Origin: Ignavibacteriota bacterium
Lineage (GTDB): Bacteria; Bacteroidota; Ignavibacteria; UBA10030
Assembly: GCA_963701295.1 (NCBI GenBank)
Contig: OY969585.1
Coordinates: forward strand, 2,400,001 to 2,464,000
Direction of reading: 5' to 3'
DNA length: 64,000 nt
The notes below the pieces were generated by a model. That model was not told where the DNA came from. It was given only the letters and a program-made list of their open reading frames with translations, and did not search any database. The translations under genes were made by a program, and so were the position numbers. This document shows, one piece after another, positions 7,439 to 15,355 of this stretch (within the stretch, counting starts at the first letter, position 1; each line of letters opens with the position of its first letter).

Positions 7439-8506
7439 ATGGCTAAAATATTTACTATAAATATTGATAAATTGTCAACCATGAATGAAAGGCGACTGGA
7501 AAAAGAAGATGTGCTTCACAACCATCTCGAAAAATTCCCTGAGATTATTGCTGAGGCGTTAGATACGGATAATCCACGCAAGTTCATAGTACTCAATAGA
7601 GAAGCAGGGGTAGTTGGCTTCTCTATGGATTTACTTCTTCTCGACCAGAATTATATATTAACAGTGGTTGAAGCCAAGCGAGCAGAAAGTACAGACTTGA
7701 GAAGGAAAATCATTGGGCAAGGTATTGAATATGCAGCGAACCTTGTGATTGTATGGAAGACAAAAAAAATACTCGAACAAGCGAAGGATTATTGGAACGG
7801 CAAGGGAAAGAAACTTCTCGATGAGATAAATACCACCTTTGAACCAGAAGAACCAATAGAGGACGATAATATACTCCTTCAAAAGGTGCAAGAAGGACTC
7901 GATAACTTGCAGATAATATTTGCAGCAGATGGTCCATTTCCCAATGAACTGAAAACTGCCATAGAGTTCTTAAATAAGAATTTTAAAACTATCAAAGTAT
8001 ATGGTCTTGAAGTAAGATACTTCGGAGAAGAAAAGGGACAGCATATTATAACTCCATTAATCGTCGGCCGAACAACTGAAGCAGAAATTGGTAAGTCAAC
8101 AACAAAACAGTGGACAGAAGAGATGTTCCTTTCTGAATTAAAGAAGATATGCGGGGATGACACTGATAAAATCAGAGTTGCAGAAGATTTGCTTAACTTT
8201 TCTAAAGATGAAGGTTCCAAGAATCCGTTTGAGAAAGGTCCGTCAGTATCAGGCAATTTTAATTTCTACGTTAAAGAAGGGACTAAAGACTATGCGCTAT
8301 TTTATGTAAATGCTTTAGGTAATATTTATTTTTATGGATTACAAAATAAAATTCTCTTCACAAAGGAATTAATAAATATTGGTTTTGAGATTTTACCAGA
8401 GAAAAAGGAGAGTCTATTGAGTCTTGGTATTCTGGAGGATCCTGAAAAACTGAAGAATTTCAAGAACATAATAAGGACATACGTTAAAAGTAAATCTGAA
8501 AATTAG
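7439..8506 (+). CDS. PD-(D/E)XK nuclease-like protein (NucS-C/restriction endonuclease-like)
   Basis: E...MDLLLLD...VVEAKR...IIGQGIEY motif; strong AGGAGG RBS. Confidence 0.65.
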   Translation: MAKIFTINIDKLSTMNERRLEKEDVLHNHLEKFPEIIAEALDTDNPRKFIVLNREAGVVGFSMDLLLLDQNYILTVVEAKRAESTDLRRKIIGQGIEYAANLVIVWKTKKILEQAKDYWNGKGKKLLDEINTTFEPEEPIEDDNILLQKVQEGLDNLQIIFAADGPFPNELKTAIEFLNKNFKTIKVYGLEVRYFGEEKGQHIITPLIVGRTTEAEIGKSTTKQWTEEMFLSELKKICGDDTDKIRVAEDLLNFSKDEGSKNPFEKGPSVSGNFNFYVKEGTKDYALFYVNALGNIYFYGLQNKILFTKELINIGFEILPEKKESLLSLGILEDPEKLKNFKNIIRTYVKSKSEN

Positions 8507-8794
8507 CATGCAGTTAAAATGAGGCATGCATCAGAGAATAAAATATTATATGGTTATTTTGCTTTTAATTGGATCCAACTAATTCTTTTGCACATGTATT
8601 GAATATAAATATTCTACAGCGTGCGTTCTAACCATTTTAAAAAGGAAAGAGTCAAGTAAATAGTAATCTCCCGATGCGTCCCGCAGCAGCGGGATGCGGA
8701 GTTCTTTGAGAGTGATGACGACCGAACACGGCCGGCAGACAGCGATGAGAGAAGCCGCATTATCTATCGAGCAGAACGCCACGACCAGGCAATG

Positions 8795-8965
8795 ACGTCC
8801 AAACCATTTTTCGGATTAACCTCCAATTCATCAAAATACCGATGGTGGAAGCATGTCTCGTCCAAGCGAGAGGTTCCAGATATTTTCACGGCGCAACGCC
8901 TGACTTCCCAATCCAGCGGACGATGCTCTTACGGCATCAGTGAGGAAAGCGGGCTTGTCAGGCGC
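8795..8965 (-). ncRNA. Putative bridge/seekRNA of IS copy 1
   Basis: Stems CGCCTGAC/GTCAGGCG and GATGC/GCATC flank guide-like segments; CCATTTT (8804-8810) matches this copy's own end. Confidence 0.65.
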
Positions 8966-9942
8966 GGCCATTGCTGAGATTTCTGTCGGTTGATCGGCTG
9001 CCCTTTGAGACCATTATATGATGTTTTGTTCTTTAAGACATAGTAAACAATCTTTGCAAGCTCCTTCGCAAGAACAGCATAGGCGGTTGGCTCGTTAGAT
9101 CGACGAGCTAATTTCTGAAAGAGACGTTTGTATTCAGGATAATACTGAACAGCATGGACAGCGGCATCAGAGAAGGCGATTTTGAGATACTTATTGCCGT
9201 CTTTGCTGGAACGGTGGTGCACGGAACGATTGGGGTTATCAGCCGCAGGGACAAGTCGGCAGTACGAGACAAATCTCTTATCAGAGTCGAAGCGTTCGAT
9301 ACCGTCGATCTCAAGATACACCGTGAAGGCTGAGAGCTTGCCGATCCCTGGGATGTGCAGGAGACGTTGAATATCGTCATTGGGGATCAGGATCGGATGG
9401 AGAGATTTTTCCAGAGCGAGGATCTGAGAGGTGAACATATCGCGAGTATGTTCCAGCACAGCAGTCTGGAAGCGATAGGGATCATGGACAGAGCCGTTAA
9501 ATTTGGCGTGAATGCTGTAGAGACGCAGCAGACAGGCAGAGCGTTGCTGAACGAGCCGTAAGCGAATGCGCATGGTATCTCGTAAGCCGCGAAGATCGCG
9601 GCTGATTTTATGAGCTTGGGGAATGAGTCCCTGCCGTAAGAGGATAGCGAGAGTTTGCGAATCAACTTTATCGGTCTTAACTTTAGCATAGCTGATGGCT
9701 TTGAGATATTTTGCGTGAGCAAGGACGAGATCGATGCCGTGGTCTTCGAGTAAATCGTTGAGCCAGTACCACCCGGTGGTAGACTCGACGACAGCCTGAT
9801 GGGAACCAGGCAAGGAATGGAAGTAATCGAGAACCACCTCGTTGCTATTCTCGACGCGTTGTTGTTTGATGACAGCACCGGTGTCATCGACAGTGGTGAT
9901 ATAACTATTATCAGAGTGCAAATCGATACCTGAGTAATACAT
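8929..9942 (-). CDS. IS110-family recombinase/transposase, possibly inactive
   Basis: GIDLH, VVEST, KTDKVD (DEDD); IPGIG; LVPAADNPN has Pro where copy 2 has the expected catalytic Ser. Confidence 0.92.
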   Translation of the reverse strand: MYYSGIDLHSDNSYITTVDDTGAVIKQQRVENSNEVVLDYFHSLPGSHQAVVESTTGWYWLNDLLEDHGIDLVLAHAKYLKAISYAKVKTDKVDSQTLAILLRQGLIPQAHKISRDLRGLRDTMRIRLRLVQQRSACLLRLYSIHAKFNGSVHDPYRFQTAVLEHTRDMFTSQILALEKSLHPILIPNDDIQRLLHIPGIGKLSAFTVYLEIDGIERFDSDKRFVSYCRLVPAADNPNRSVHHRSSKDGNKYLKIAFSDAAVHAVQYYPEYKRLFQKLARRSNEPTAYAVLAKELAKIVYYVLKNKTSYNGLKGQPINRQKSQQWPRLTSPLSSLMP

Positions 9943-10283
9943 GGGAATCTCCTATTGTTGATGATGAATGTTTAATTCTTCAAGCTAAACATACAAAATC
10001 GGGAGGTTCCTTTTTGGTAATATCTAACAACTCAAGCTGACGAAATGAGCGCCCGCCCAAAGATAAAGCTTGGCGGGTAAATGGGTACGTTAAGCATGGC
10101 TAATAGAGGTTTAGATGTTTAATAATAAACTTATCAGAATGAACTATAGAAGAGGAAACACGCTGCGCGTGTTACAGTTATGGGGCTCCGCCTGTTATCA
10201 GTAACTTGCGGCTTCTCGTTGACGCAGCTTAGTTGCCAATCGTTAGGGCACAATTACTCATTCATTAGTTAGCTGGAAGATTT

Positions 10284-12890
10284 ATGAAAAACCTTTTATG
10301 CTTTTTTATTCTCCTCGTTTTTGCATCTTTGCTGTGTTATGCCAATCCAGGCAGAGGCAGAGTTAAAATAGCTCACGGTACAATAGTTACCGACAAAGGC
10401 ACTTTACTGCGCGGCTGCGTTGTTGGAACTGATATCGTCGGATATACCCGTGAACAATTCAATTCAATTAAAGAATACGGATTAAATACGTGTCATTTAG
10501 GTGTATGGAACGTGTCTGATGTAGGCACAGAATTAGCAGCTTCTATTGATAGTATAGTAAAATGGACTGAAGAAGACTCACTTTACCTGATTATTACACC
10601 GACATCTGGAGCAGCATGGAATCCATTATTTGGCCTGGTTGATAGTACGAATTATAAATGTACATTGGATTTTTGGAAATTTTACGCCCCGAGGTATAAA
10701 GACAAAACACATGTTATATACGAACTCGTAAATGAACCTTGTCAGTATCTCCATAGTTCAGACACGTTGCCAAGATTTTACAGTGATGGCTATAAGATTA
10801 TGCGTGATTCGGCCCCGGATACACATATTATTTTGCCAATTATTTGGTCAGCTGATTGGGATCCTTGGCATATGAAGGCTTGGGCAAATATTGAAAGTGA
10901 TATTAAAAGGTTAACGGATAGAGGGGTAGATATGTCGAATGTATCCATTTCATTTCATACCTATGGTTTCAGCGGTATAGCCCTGGATAGCATTTTGCTT
11001 TGTTTTAGAGCTTTAGGCCATTCTTTTATTTGTACAGAAATGCCGGCGTTTTTTAATATCTATTTACAAGATGCACATCTTAATTTCAAGGATGTTAAGA
11101 TTTATGAGAAAGACTCTGTGTCGTATGTTTATATACTTTCATTAAGCGATTTGTCACAAAATGAAAAATACAAAGATGTTTTAGAAGATTATGGCATTTC
11201 CTGGGCCCCTGATTTTGGAAAATGGCCTTACACGATAAAATCGGATACCAGGACATGGAATGCCAGTCAGCCTATTGGCGCTGAATGGTTCGATATAGGA
11301 GCGGATTCCAGTATAGCTGGTATATATTCCCAATTATATTATGTTGAAATTTGTCTGCCGAATCTTCCATGGATAATGTTTAAAAAAGTTGATTTCAATA
11401 AAGCAATCGGCTGTAATATCAGGATTGCAAGCACTGATGCCACCAATGATGATAATATCGAATTGCACCTTGATTCACTCACGGGGAAGAAAATTGGTGA
11501 ACTTACCAATTTTTATACAGGTGGGGATGATATCTGGCAAACATTTAGTTTCAAGATTGATACAACGGATGGGATACATGCTATCTATTTCGTAGTCCAT
11601 GGAGAAGCAAAAATCGAATGGTTTTATTTTAGCCAGGAAAGTGGAACCAGTCAAATACTGCAAATACCAAAATGCAGTACCCCGCCGGTTATTGATGGCG
11701 TGCTCGATGATATCTGGAATTATACTTATGCAGTCCCGTTATTAAATTATCAGGCAGGTCTTGATACACCGAAGTCATATATCGATCACTTCAGCACTTT
11801 ACGTACCATGTGGGACGATAATTATTTTTATGCATTTGTCCATGTCATGGACGATATAATTTGCGCAGGAAATCCAGCTCCGTGGAAAAATGATGCCATT
11901 GAACTATACTTTGATGGGGGAAATGATAAAACTCCCTTTAATGGGGTTCCCGATTATGATGCTAATGATAGACAATGGATATGGGTTTATGGCATACAGG
12001 ACACCAGTTCACTTCCTGTCAGCAGTTTTTGGAGGGGCCCCGGCAATTGGGTGTGGAAAAAAACTGCTGTGGGTTACGACTTTGAATTAAAAATCCCTAA
12101 AGATTCGCTTACTTTTCCATTGGTTGCGGGCCATGCAATTGGGTTTGAAATAGCAAATGATGATTGTGATAATAATATACAAGGACGTACCAATACTAAC
12201 CAGTGGTGGTCATCAAGCCCAGATGCCTGGAAGGATGCATCGGTATTTGGGACAGCATTGTTGAAGGATGGCAAATTAATTTACAGTTCGCCTCCTGCAC
12301 CTGTTCTTCTTGCTTGTGCACACAATGCAAAAGATCAACCGACAACGTTGACATTAAGCTGGAAACCATCTGCCCGCGCTTCAACCTACCAATTGCAGGT
12401 TGCAACAAGTTCTAATTTCGGGAGCGGACTGGTAGCTAACGATTCAACAATTATTGATCCCGTGAAGAAAGTTGGTTCACTTTCTCTTAATGTAACGTAT
12501 TACTGGAGAGTGCGTGCTGCAAATGCTTCAGGAAAAAGCGGTTGGTCGGAAATTTGGCAATTCACAACTTCAAAAAATACTGGAGTATCTGAGGAAGTGA
12601 ATATTCCATTAATTTACTCTCTAAGTCAAAACTACCCTAACCCGTTCAATCCATCGACGACAATAAAATATTCTCTTCCCGATCGAAGCCAAGTAAGACT
12701 TCAAATATTCAACATTCTTGGACAGATGGTAAAGGAACTTGTTAATAATGAACAAACAGCAGGATATAAATATGTTGTCTGGAATGCAAACGTATCGTCG
12801 GGATTGTATATCTATCGACTTGAGGCAACATCGAAAGACAATCCTTCGAAACGATTTATCAATACGAAGAAAATGATTTTGATAAAATGA
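10284..12890 (+). CDS. GH5-family glycoside hydrolase with CBM6, CBM9-like and FN3 domains and T9SS CTD
   Basis: HVIYELVNEP acid/base and ICTE nucleophile motifs; IELHLDSLTG...TGGDDIWQT (CBM6); PVIDGVLDDIW (CBM9-like); CTD. Confidence 0.8.
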   Translation: MKNLLCFFILLVFASLLCYANPGRGRVKIAHGTIVTDKGTLLRGCVVGTDIVGYTREQFNSIKEYGLNTCHLGVWNVSDVGTELAASIDSIVKWTEEDSLYLIITPTSGAAWNPLFGLVDSTNYKCTLDFWKFYAPRYKDKTHVIYELVNEPCQYLHSSDTLPRFYSDGYKIMRDSAPDTHIILPIIWSADWDPWHMKAWANIESDIKRLTDRGVDMSNVSISFHTYGFSGIALDSILLCFRALGHSFICTEMPAFFNIYLQDAHLNFKDVKIYEKDSVSYVYILSLSDLSQNEKYKDVLEDYGISWAPDFGKWPYTIKSDTRTWNASQPIGAEWFDIGADSSIAGIYSQLYYVEICLPNLPWIMFKKVDFNKAIGCNIRIASTDATNDDNIELHLDSLTGKKIGELTNFYTGGDDIWQTFSFKIDTTDGIHAIYFVVHGEAKIEWFYFSQESGTSQILQIPKCSTPPVIDGVLDDIWNYTYAVPLLNYQAGLDTPKSYIDHFSTLRTMWDDNYFYAFVHVMDDIICAGNPAPWKNDAIELYFDGGNDKTPFNGVPDYDANDRQWIWVYGIQDTSSLPVSSFWRGPGNWVWKKTAVGYDFELKIPKDSLTFPLVAGHAIGFEIANDDCDNNIQGRTNTNQWWSSSPDAWKDASVFGTALLKDGKLIYSSPPAPVLLACAHNAKDQPTTLTLSWKPSARASTYQLQVATSSNFGSGLVANDSTIIDPVKKVGSLSLNVTYYWRVRAANASGKSGWSEIWQFTTSKNTGVSEEVNIPLIYSLSQNYPNPFNPSTTIKYSLPDRSQVRLQIFNILGQMVKELVNNEQTAGYKYVVWNANVSSGLYIYRLEATSKDNPSKRFINTKKMILIK

Positions 12891-13054
12891 GATAATTATG
12901 TCCTAACCAGTTTAAAAAGGAAAGAGTCAAGTAAATAATATACTCCCGATGCGTTCCGCGCAATCGGAATGCAGAGTTCTTTAACATTAAGGACGACCGA
13001 ATCCGTGCCGATGCCGCGTTCTCTATCGAATAGACAGGCGATTACCAGAGCAAT

Positions 13055-13229
13055 GCCGTCCAAACCAGTTTACGGATTTACATTCACTCATTGAAGAAAC
13101 GATGGTGAAAGCGTATCTCGTCGAGCGAGATGTTCCAGATATTACCACGGCACAGCGCACTCTCTTCCCAATCCAGCGAACGATCCCGACGCAGTCGGGA
13201 TCAGTTAGGAAAGCGGGCTTGAGAGGCGC
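13055..13229 (-). ncRNA. Putative bridge/seekRNA of IS copy 2
   Basis: Two internal loops whose four segments match the attC target (CCTAAC, CCAGC) and the IS ends (GGTAATATC, CCAGTTTA). Confidence 0.75.
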
Positions 13230-14206
13230 GGCCACTGCTGAGATTTATGCCGGCTGATCGGCTGACCTTTGAGACCTTTATATATTGTTTTGTTTTTTAA
13301 GACATAGTAAACAATCTTCGCAAGTTCTTTGGCAACGACGGTTCGCGCAGTCGCCTCATTGGAGCGACGAGCTAATTTCTGGAATAAGCGTTTGTATTCC
13401 GGATAGTACTGAATAGCATGAACAGCGGCATCGGAGAAGGCGATTTTGAGATACTTATTGCCGTCTTTGCTGGAGCGATGGTGCACAGAGCGATTGGAGT
13501 TATCGGCAGCAGGGACGAGTCGGCAGTAAGAGACAAACTTTTTATCGGAGTCGAATCGTTCAATGCCGTCGATTTCAAGATACACCGTGAATGCGGTGAG
13601 CTTGCCGATACCTGGAATGTGCAAGAGCCGTTGAATATCGTCGTTGGGAATCAGCACAGGATGGAGAGATTTTTCCAGCGAGAGGATCTGAGCAGTAAAA
13701 GTGTCTCTGGTATGTTGCAAGACAGCAAGTTGAAAACGATACGGATCCGGAACAGAGCCGTTAAATTTGGTCTGAATACTGTAGAGACGCAGAAGACTGG
13801 CAGTTCGTTGCTGAACGAGCCGTAGACGAATACGCATGGTATCGCGCAGGCCGCGTAGTTCTCGGCTGATTTTGTGAGCCCGTGGAATGAGTCCCTGTCG
13901 TAAGAGAAGAGCAAGAGTTTGCGAATCGACTTTATCTGTTTTAACTTTAGCATAACTGATGGCTTTGAGATATTTGGCGTGAGCAAGGACAAGCTCGATG
14001 CCGTGATCGCTGAGAAGATCGTTGAGCCAGTACCATCCTGTGGTAGACTCAACGACTGCGTGATGAGGACCGGGCAGAGAGTGGAAGTAATCAAGAACAC
14101 GTTCATTGTTATTCTCGACACGTTGTCGCTTGATGACAGCACCAGTGTCATCAACAGTGGTGATAAAACAATTATCAGAATGCAAATCGATACCTGAGTA
14201 ATACAT
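13205..14206 (-). CDS. IS110-family recombinase/transposase (intact motifs)
   Basis: MYYSGIDLH start with AAGGAG RBS; DEDD motifs; LVPAADNS retains the Ser. Confidence 0.93.
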   Translation of the reverse strand: MYYSGIDLHSDNCFITTVDDTGAVIKRQRVENNNERVLDYFHSLPGPHHAVVESTTGWYWLNDLLSDHGIELVLAHAKYLKAISYAKVKTDKVDSQTLALLLRQGLIPRAHKISRELRGLRDTMRIRLRLVQQRTASLLRLYSIQTKFNGSVPDPYRFQLAVLQHTRDTFTAQILSLEKSLHPVLIPNDDIQRLLHIPGIGKLTAFTVYLEIDGIERFDSDKKFVSYCRLVPAADNSNRSVHHRSSKDGNKYLKIAFSDAAVHAIQYYPEYKRLFQKLARRSNEATARTVVAKELAKIVYYVLKNKTIYKGLKGQPISRHKSQQWPRLSSPLS

Positions 14207-14464
14207 GGGAATCTCCTTAGATTGTGGATGTTGGTGACCTAGAGAATTATCAATGTACATAATCGGGAGATTCCTTTTTGGTAATATCCAGCAACTCAAG
14301 CTGACGGAATGAGCGTAAGTAAGTACAAAATTGAAAGAACTAGCATGAACTTGTTTCGTTTAGTATATTTTGAAAGTTATCAGTGTCACAGCTTAACTGC
14401 CATCCGTTAGGCAGCGCAGCGTGCAGTAAGTGCTAATTGAAATAGCAAAAGGAATAAAACGCTT

Positions 14465-15355
14465 ATGATCCGATTATTTGCCATTTTAATGTTTTTATCT
14501 TCTCAAGTTGTGTCTATTGCAACTGCTCAAGATCTCTATTTTCAAAAAAAGACTGCAATAATTCGATGGTCAAATGGGAAAAAAATAGATACTATCTGGC
14601 AGGCACCATTCTCAGTAAATGATATAAGCTTGAGTCAAGATTGCCAATTTATTTGTTTCACAAAATCTGTAGTCAACGATAATTCTCGATCTGAAAGGGA
14701 AGTTGGATACTACTCATTAATCGATAAAAAGTTTACAATAATCAAATCTAATACATTATTTAATTATGGAGCCATTATGTCTCCATCAAATGAACTCATT
14801 GCCTTTAGTTATCTTCCTGGGCGCAGGGAATGGAAAACTGCTCTTTATAATCGAATTAAAAATACTTTGAATTATGATGTTGCCCCTTCAATTGCTGGCG
14901 ATGCCTACAATGCATTCAGCTGGCACTCAGATTCATTACTTTGCTTTGCCACGCTTGATAAGATCATTGAGAAGAATATCCACGATAGCACTACGAAAAT
15001 GTTCACACCGCCTGATTCAGAAATGTCGTTCACAGTGCCTGGTACTCAAATGCTATTTCTAAACGATACAGCTTTTGCCTTCGTTTGTGCTGATGTCAGC
15101 CGCCAAATATCTGCTGAATTCGATGGCCCTCCAACAAATGTCTTTCTTACCATTAGTGGAAGTACTGAGAGGCTTTTCTCAAAAAAAGAAGACGTCAATG
15201 CTTGTTTTATTTCTAACAAGAGCATTTATATCGGTTACACTGACTATGCACTTTCAAAAAAAGGTAGAGAAATGCTTGTGCGATATGATATTCGCTCTAA
15301 AAAAAAGGAATTGATAAAATCACTAGGACTTCTTATCGGTGTGTCTCATAATTAA
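14465..15355 (+). CDS. Secreted hypothetical protein, possible TolB-like propeller (cassette)
   Basis: Signal peptide; LSQD/MSPSNELIAFS/FSW repeats; flanked by attC sites. Confidence 0.55.
   Translation: MIRLFAILMFLSSQVVSIATAQDLYFQKKTAIIRWSNGKKIDTIWQAPFSVNDISLSQDCQFICFTKSVVNDNSRSEREVGYYSLIDKKFTIIKSNTLFNYGAIMSPSNELIAFSYLPGRREWKTALYNRIKNTLNYDVAPSIAGDAYNAFSWHSDSLLCFATLDKIIEKNIHDSTTKMFTPPDSEMSFTVPGTQMLFLNDTAFAFVCADVSRQISAEFDGPPTNVFLTISGSTERLFSKKEDVNACFISNKSIYIGYTDYALSKKGREMLVRYDIRSKKKELIKSLGLLIGVSHN

Follow-up and report, generated by a model that had tools for sequence, protein, structure and literature searches.

A predicted bridge RNA that shares its first guide with the recombinase stop codon in an attC-targeting IS110-family element of Ignavibacteriota

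An IS110-family element in the window (the whole 64,000-nt stretch of Ignavibacteriota contig OY969585.1 that was analysed) very likely yields, from its 3' region, a two-loop bridge RNA, the first stem strand and first guide of which coincide with the final nine codons and the stop of the recombinase gene. The element is RNA-guided and of the known IS110/IS1111 kind; its guides are well supported, the coding overlap is clade-wide, and one branch has uncoupled the two functions naturally. The target-loop/donor-loop layout of IS110 bridge RNAs that had been read from this DNA in the original prediction is upheld, with guide-DNA covariation, site choice within the genome, stem covariation and the DEDD/serine recombinase all in agreement.

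The recombinase contains the PF01548 and PF02371 domains and scores above the cut-off of NF033542 in profile searches. D7, E53 and D91 are invariant among 95 sequences, D94 and S237 are retained in at least 90% of them, and the AlphaFold model matches the IS621 and ISCro4 fold (E 1e-15, TM ~0.7). The serine region reads RLVPAADNSN and lacks the GL-P----S(t)G motif of the IS1111 group; at position 238, among 122 loci, 76 have N, 28 have G and 16 have A. The best named plasmid match is to the ISGsu4 family (30.5%), with ISEc11 at 24.6%, and the closest named relatives come from Ignavibacteriota and Bacteroidota assemblies. The motifs GIDLH..WYWL..SYCRLV fit the ISGsu4 row, not the ISKpn4 row (AVDLAK..LGLTP), in the consulted part of Supplementary Table 1 of PMC11208160. 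The recombinase is thus assigned to an ISGsu4-like branch, set apart from ISKpn4 by these table motifs.

The element spans 12907-14289, and a genome search recovered nine identical copies of 1,381 bp, which by their identity mark an apparently intact element that was recently active or expanded, along with two copies of an 89% relative. All nine copies interrupt the R'' box of an attC site at the same base, antiparallel to the cassette genes, and all nine have the dinucleotide CC at both ends. From the overlap of the guides and the register of the handshake we infer that this CC is the core. In a numbering of 1-14 with the core at 8-9, as for the 14-nt target and donor of IS621 in the consulted parts of PMC11208158 and PMC13626964, the target reads GTCCTAA-CC-AGCAA and the donor GTAATAT-CC-AGTTT. 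The recombinase gene is followed by 296 nt and preceded by 81 nt of non-coding sequence, and 8 bp, the 2-bp core and 5 bp lie between the subterminal repeats. The features of the element and its insertion site are as follows:

12900..12906, plus strand: target positions 1-7 (GTCCTAA), on the R'' side of the attC, immediately past the stop of an 868-aa cassette gene
12907..12908, plus strand: core CC, copy 1, at the junction of target left side and element right end (both ends, 9/9 copies)
12909..12913, plus strand: right end of the element (donor positions 10-14), recognised by the right donor guide
12914..12922, plus strand: subterminal inverted repeat, right copy, 9 bp, perfect
12925..12930, minus strand: predicted -35 hexamer (TTGACT) of a circle-junction promoter, from a conserved end-pair pattern
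13205..14206, minus strand: IS110-family recombinase, 333 aa, with D7, E53, D91, D94 and S237 intact
14271..14279, plus strand: subterminal inverted repeat, left copy
14280..14287, plus strand: left end of the element (donor positions 1-7), recognised by the left donor guide; also the predicted -10 box
14288..14289, plus strand: core CC, copy 2
14290..14412, plus strand: rest of the interrupted attC, starting with target positions 10-14 (L'' at ~14296, L' at ~14392, R' GTTAGGC at 14406-14412)

The predicted junction promoter, TTGACT-17-GATATT, recurs in 68 of 70 distinct end pairs, TTGAC having been the search anchor. Joined element ends were not seen among the contigs of four DNA runs (X1, X2, X3, X5), contigs being a form of data that drops rare forms. 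Subterminal repeats of 7-14 bp are present in 64 of the 70 end pairs and change in step between clades. Inside them lies a second 8-bp inverted repeat (~12943-12950 and ~14260-14267), the right-end offset of which corresponds to the stretch with the -35 box. A promoter-like pattern near chance level, at 12911-12973 on the plus strand, points from the right end into the element, antisense to the RNA, and is followed by a terminator-like hairpin.

The RNA is predicted on the minus strand, with these parts:

13055..13234, minus strand: predicted bridge/seek RNA of ~180 nt (fold, alignment, covariation)
13063..13064, minus strand: donor-loop handshake UU, complementary to target positions 6-7 (AA), with agreement in 94/95 at position 7 and 87/95 at position 6
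13065..13072, minus strand: right donor guide UAAACUGG (match and covariation)
13137..13146, minus strand: left donor guide GGUAAUAUCU (match; no phylogenetic covariation signal)
13155..13169, minus strand: 3' strand of the target-loop outer stem and closing GGG (covariation)
13171..13172, minus strand: target-loop handshake AU, complementary to donor positions 6-7 (AT), with the same letters as in IS621; its first base was a search anchor
13173..13179, minus strand: right target guide (UC)GCUGG, of which positions 8-12 are read
13182..13202, minus strand: target-loop inner hairpin, variable among relatives (fold, alignment)
13203..13211, minus strand: left target guide UUCCUAACU, with the UAA stop (13207-13205)
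13212..13234, minus strand: dual-coded stretch, codons WPRLSSPL and 5' strand of the target-loop stem

The coordinates originally given for the four matching segments are exact (GTTAGG at 13204-13209, CCAGC at 13173-13177, GATATTACC at 13138-13146 and CCAGTTTA at 13065-13072), and the inner 9-bp hairpin at 13182-13202 is present, with a sequence specific to this copy. The fold with two internal loops was reproduced (z -2.1), 5 of 200 shuffles being equally good. When the 186-nt region was shuffled 20,000 times with dinucleotides preserved, the single matches arose in 2.3%, 25%, 0.05% and 0.24% of the shuffles and all four together in none (0/20,000). Stem conservation was assessed in an alignment of 60 RNAs, a hand-picked spread of 58 de-duplicated relatives and the two window copies. 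Pairing of the outer stem is 98.7%, with two-sided changes in 8 of its 9 pairs. The GCCGT/ACGGC stem proposed for the second loop forms in this copy but is not conserved, only 63% of cells being paired in the 60 relatives; the conserved closure is CC (13150-13149) with GG (13061-13060), 99% paired. An RNAalifold alternative pairs columns 8-10 with 99-101 in place of this symmetric CC/GG closure, and because both use invariant bases the two are indistinguishable. A long-range outer stem (7-10 with 215-218), paired in 81% and free of two-sided changes, was rejected. Rfam gave no match at E up to 1 in a search of 8500-14500. In contigs of relatives from four RNA runs (X15, X16, X18, X19), the gene and the 3' region are covered alike, over the whole element. 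In four relatives (L036, L047, L060, L077), the donor loop is reduced to a tiny inner hairpin, making their RNAs of ~140 nt natural minimal bridge RNAs.

The proposed sharing of a TAA stop (13207-13205) between the gene and the CCTAAC guide was borne out across the relatives. These comprised 157 loci and three local copies (160 in total; recombinase identity of the relatives, 43-91%), with a C-terminal match in 147 and a parsable target loop in 134, or 122 after de-duplication. The stop occupies guide positions 5-7 in 118 of the 134 loci (107 of the 122 distinct ones), and 115 of 120 protein matches end nine residues from the W of WPR. The 5' strand of the outer stem and the left guide are together translated as WPRLSSPLS and a stop, in a reading frame that is kept from 43% to 100% identity. 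The exceptions are a frameshifted locus (L065), four TCA loci with read-through and a clade of 12 loci. WPR-type tails are limited to the closer relatives; the pattern was found in 5 of 94 distant representatives, two of them likely by chance. By eye, the GKP, SP and EP ends of distant relatives resemble the same RNA motif in other frames. In the AlphaFold model the last two blocks, which cover the dual-coded tail, have pLDDT of 56 and 47 and the alignment is thin over the tail, so the model says nothing on the role of this tail.

Conservation of the TAA as a stop codon was considered and rejected, given that the triplet is kept out of frame as well and that guide positions 5-7 among the 122 loci are TAA in 118 and TCA in four, never TAG or TGA. 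What fixes the TAA appears to be the TAAC of attC sites and not a need for termination at that place. The change from TAA to TCA took place in at least two separate branches (the 8931-8947 region of the window, L061, L130); the three TCA loci with a readable flank adjoin AA at target positions 6-7, and the catalytic residues are intact in two of the four.

The 12-locus clade is nested among coupled elements (support 95 in a quick tree), with ten members in the parsed set, and likely arose by duplication of the shared stretch. Here [WY]PRL is preserved in an upstream copy, with synonymous codons left free, and the RNA in a downstream one. Translation continues through the RNA in a different frame in nine of the 12 and ends ~88 nt ahead of the guide in three. 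The TAA nevertheless persists as an out-of-frame or non-coding triplet in the guides of all ten parsed loci and, judged by eye, of L131, and the catalytic residues are intact. Of the coupled RNAs, 73 of 74 retain the stem bases that encode Arg and a hydrophobic residue, vs 3 of 8 uncoupled ones, a comparison that does not amount to independent sampling, since the uncoupled clade represents one event. The best reading is that the protein tail [WY]PR[LVI] and the RNA stem and guide are each under their own selection and that the overlap is compact dual coding.

The overlap could alternatively couple the enzyme to its guide in a regulatory manner, which we regard as doubtful. Translation covers half of the target-loop stem, so that the guide could not stay folded while a ribosome terminates there, and vice versa; either the stop codon would be lost on excision of the RNA or termination would be blocked by loop-bound recombinase, with feedback on the enzyme level and new enzyme being handed its own RNA as the outcome. 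With the ribosome-covered stretch blocked, folding is predicted at -37.1 instead of -71.4 kcal/mol and the target loop is lost, but this would hold for any overlap. A sigma-70 scan of the 3' end of the gene found no internal minus-strand promoter upstream of the RNA, the frame is held over the whole identity range, and TnpB, according to the consulted part of 10.64898/2026.09.09.750255, derives its guide by processing its own message, from the 3' coding region. Against these points, the 12-locus clade is uncoupled with its catalytic residues intact, and the GKP, SP and EP endings of distant relatives suggest passive read-through. Similarly improbable, in our estimate, is a wider reading as a self-limiting single-transcript system: guide RNA cut from the end of the message would destroy the stop, or bound enzyme would block termination; retargeting of the left guide would rewrite the last residues and the stop; and the lineage would have found attC independently of ISKpn4, with one branch escaping by duplication of the shared stretch. 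The overlap and its natural undoing offer a direct test of how a 3' guide RNA is released from its message.

Codon optimisation of the gene end would break the RNA, and bridge-RNA screens restricted to sequence between genes would truncate it and lose the first guide. A 2026 screen used intergenic sequence (10.64898/2026.10.21.760802, consulted in part). A literature search that covered neither subscription papers nor figures nor preprint supplements found no bridge or seek RNA guide inside its own gene, and no mention of this lineage; the consensus structures of PMC11208160, consulted in part, could include a gene-internal guide.

To what extent guides and DNA change together was assessed in the relatives, with search patterns that fixed CT at left-guide positions 8-9, G at right-guide position 8 and the first handshake base; four left-end calls were left out as mis-anchored (L023, L040, L083, L124). 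The right donor guide agrees with the element end in 95 of 95 cases at positions 10 (39.8 expected), 12 and 14, and in 81 of 95 at position 11 (43.7 expected). The right target guide agrees with the target at position 12 in 75 of 94 (39.1 expected); for the left target guide, agreement at position 4 is 79 of 96 (60.8 expected). Permutation tests, which ignore kinship, placed positions 10, 11, 12 and 14 of the right donor guide, 10-14 of the right target guide, 2-4 of the left target guide and 2 of the left donor guide above expectation.

Kinship was taken into account by comparing own with crossed DNA in independent pairs on a recombinase tree built without the C-terminal overlap. Covariation was strongest for right donor positions 10-14 (14.3 to 0.0 pairs, p 1e-4), followed by left target positions 1-7 (14.5 to 2.4, median p 0.004, worst 0.08). 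For the right target guide, positions 10-12 gave 10.2 to 0.1 (median p 0.002), the full range 10-14 was not significant (13.3 to 5.8, p 0.12) and positions 13-14 had no signal (p 0.45); the sub-ranges 10-12 and 2-4 were picked after the per-position counts had been seen. The left donor guide gave no signal (p 1), as did the four crossed controls (p 1), and tests of single positions had too few pairs to reach significance. The expectation that guides covary with targets and ends therefore holds for the right donor and left target guides, for the right target guide at positions 10-12 only, and fails for the left donor guide. The near-invariance of the left donor end probably reflects its second role as the -10 box of the predicted junction promoter. 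The relatives form a natural reprogramming series of ~120 guide-target pairs. In several branches (L053-L058, L066-L073 and part of L127-L147), the junction cores have changed to CA and both right guides have changed with them; other relatives, with guides for CC, are often found at CA sites, so position 9 seems to be loosely read.

These results bear on the question of whether seekRNAs have a working donor loop. An 82-nt ISEc11 seekRNA sufficed for movement (PMC11187229, consulted in part), and by analogy the target loop could here be the only working part, with a dispensable donor loop, which would fit the left donor guide without covariation; we consider this very improbable, as it is the right donor guide that shows the strongest covariation of all (95/95 at positions 10, 12 and 14; 14.3 to 0 pairs).

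The two left guides share the ending CU, the two right guides the ending GG. The predicted handshake pairing rises from two Watson-Crick pairs before strand exchange to four after it; because the handshake letters are nearly invariant and partly fixed by the search anchors, this is a fit and not covariation. By inference from IS621 and ISEc11, the element would form a circle, the joined ends of which would create the promoter TTGACT-17-GATATT, and the recombinase message and the RNA would share a single transcript. Both strands of CCTAA-CC-AGC at the attC R'' box may then base-pair with the target loop, and both strands of the circle junction with the donor loop, and the DEDD/serine enzyme would exchange strands around the CC core. 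The gain of pairs by the AU and UU handshakes (2 to 4) would favour insertion.

Site choice within the host genome follows the guide. CCAGC, predicted by the guide for positions 8-12, is found at 8 of 9 occupied sites vs 29 of 97 empty ones (Fisher p 8e-4), the empty set consisting of attC sites found by pattern in nine arrays; as two copies share flanks, the test was repeated with distinct flanks only (7/8, p 0.002). CCAGG, the commonest empty site (45/97), is occupied only once. Two identical copies depart from the guide, one in CCAGG and one in CATAAC. That targeting is mostly the work of the protein or of folded single-stranded attC, the matches being relics or partly used and the left target guide being kept as a stop, is hardly credible: mismatched guides do persist (TCA in 4/122; positions 13-14 unlinked), all targets share the attC structure and the host sites are alike, yet the TAA is kept where it is not a stop (TAG/TGA, 0/122), guides and DNA change together on independent branches, and choice among sites in one genome tracks the guide.

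Comparisons with characterized systems were drawn from the consulted parts of the cited papers. The description of the element as an attC-targeting IS1111 holds with respect to attC targeting, the 3' RNA and guide order, but not the ISKpn4 branch, insertion point, end geometry or serine motif. SeekRNAs have been reported for the attC-targeting ISKpn4 and ISPst6 (Siddiquee et al. 2024, PMC11187229), and 93% of IS1111 elements are predicted to have 3' bridge RNAs, often with multi-loop donor domains (PMC11208160). With the IS1111-attC elements (ISKpn4, ISPst6, ISPa21, ISPa25) our element shares the DEDD recombinase, long 3' non-coding region, attC target and its orientation, and a target loop that comes first, with the top-strand match before the bottom-strand match; the strand with which the first guide pairs is the one that encodes the recombinase direction, in the IS1111 top-before-bottom order. 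In contrast, the core lies at the last C of AAC, unlike the insertion point of ISKpn4 and ISPst6, ISKpn4 inserting ~5-6 bp further into attC (PMC13604230, Table 1) and our element nearer the R'' box. The guides of ISKpn4 and ISPst6 lie within the listed non-coding region, whereas the target loop here starts inside the gene. The terminal extensions of IS1111 (7 bp left and 3 bp right) are replaced by the 8+2+5 arrangement, and its subterminal repeats, usually 11-13 bp (PMC11187229) or 7-17 bp (PMC11208160), compare with 9 bp in this copy. Given the other branch, cut point, end geometry and serine motif, the element works like an IS1111-attC element without being a member, and attC targeting likely had a second origin here, independent of the ISKpn4 lineage.

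IS621 and ISCro4 (Durrant 2024, PMC11208160; Hiraizumi 2024, PMC11208158; PMC13626964) have in common with our element two loops, four guides, a 2-nt core at 8-9, left guides ending in CU, a target-loop handshake AU opposite donor AT and the protein fold. On exchange, handshake pairs rise from 1 to 3 in IS621 and from 2 to 4 here, a net gain of two in both. They differ in an RNA located 5' of the gene, not 3' and overlapping it, and in a CT core, vs CC or CA here and in relatives; our element furthermore has one or two inner donor-loop hairpins, subterminal repeats of 9-14 bp and ~21% protein identity to them. The four-guide and handshake rules of IS621 thereby extend to a distant element with a 3' RNA. 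The ISEc11 and ISPa11 seekRNAs (bioRxiv 2024.04.26.591405) resemble the RNA predicted here as 3' parts of a junction-promoter transcript with two hairpin domains containing internal loops, but start 39-86 nt past the stop, whereas the first stem here starts 22 nt before it, and the end geometry is 7+3 as opposed to 8+2+5. The TnpB reRNA that overlaps the 3' end of tnpB (10.64898/2026.09.09.750255) is a comparable case of a guide RNA scaffold inside the enzyme's own 3' coding region; TnpB is unrelated and has been shown to self-process, and in our element a predicted programmable guide, not only a scaffold, lies in coding sequence.

The window contains a second relative:

8632..10025, minus strand: second relative, 89% aa identity, likely inactive (Ser237 to Pro; guide TAA to TCA with a 4-codon read-through)

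The two genomic copies of this relative (the other at 2396324-2397725 of the genome contig) have identical genes and left flanks and differ in their last ~130 bp and left targets, the differing right ends suggesting recombination between copies. Its poor guide matches weigh little, because it is likely a dead, rearranged relic.

Insertion cuts the R'' box off from the rest of attC, and the cassettes in these arrays are therefore likely immobilised. The left end (14280-14289) puts ATC in place of the attC AAC triplet beside the remaining arm, which is predicted to weaken the site. A loose pattern detected an L''-like box after the insertion in 62 of 77 relatives; the corresponding R' motif test had a 75% background and hence was uninformative. 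The array in the window (1-41000) carries very large cassettes of 700-1,100 aa with attC sites of ~130-190 bp, and the integron integrase is located away from it, more than 1 Mb distant, at genome position 3,566,721. Two cassette products were scanned, and both contain a secretion-system C-terminal domain, one of them also glycoside hydrolase and carbohydrate-binding domains. On the genome contig, solo right ends of related elements, devoid of a recombinase, are found at 1810046, 2382028, 2384981 (plus strand), 3333607 and 97794 (minus strand); at 1810046 and 2384981, ~60-90 bp of the element end are joined to the right arm of an attC.
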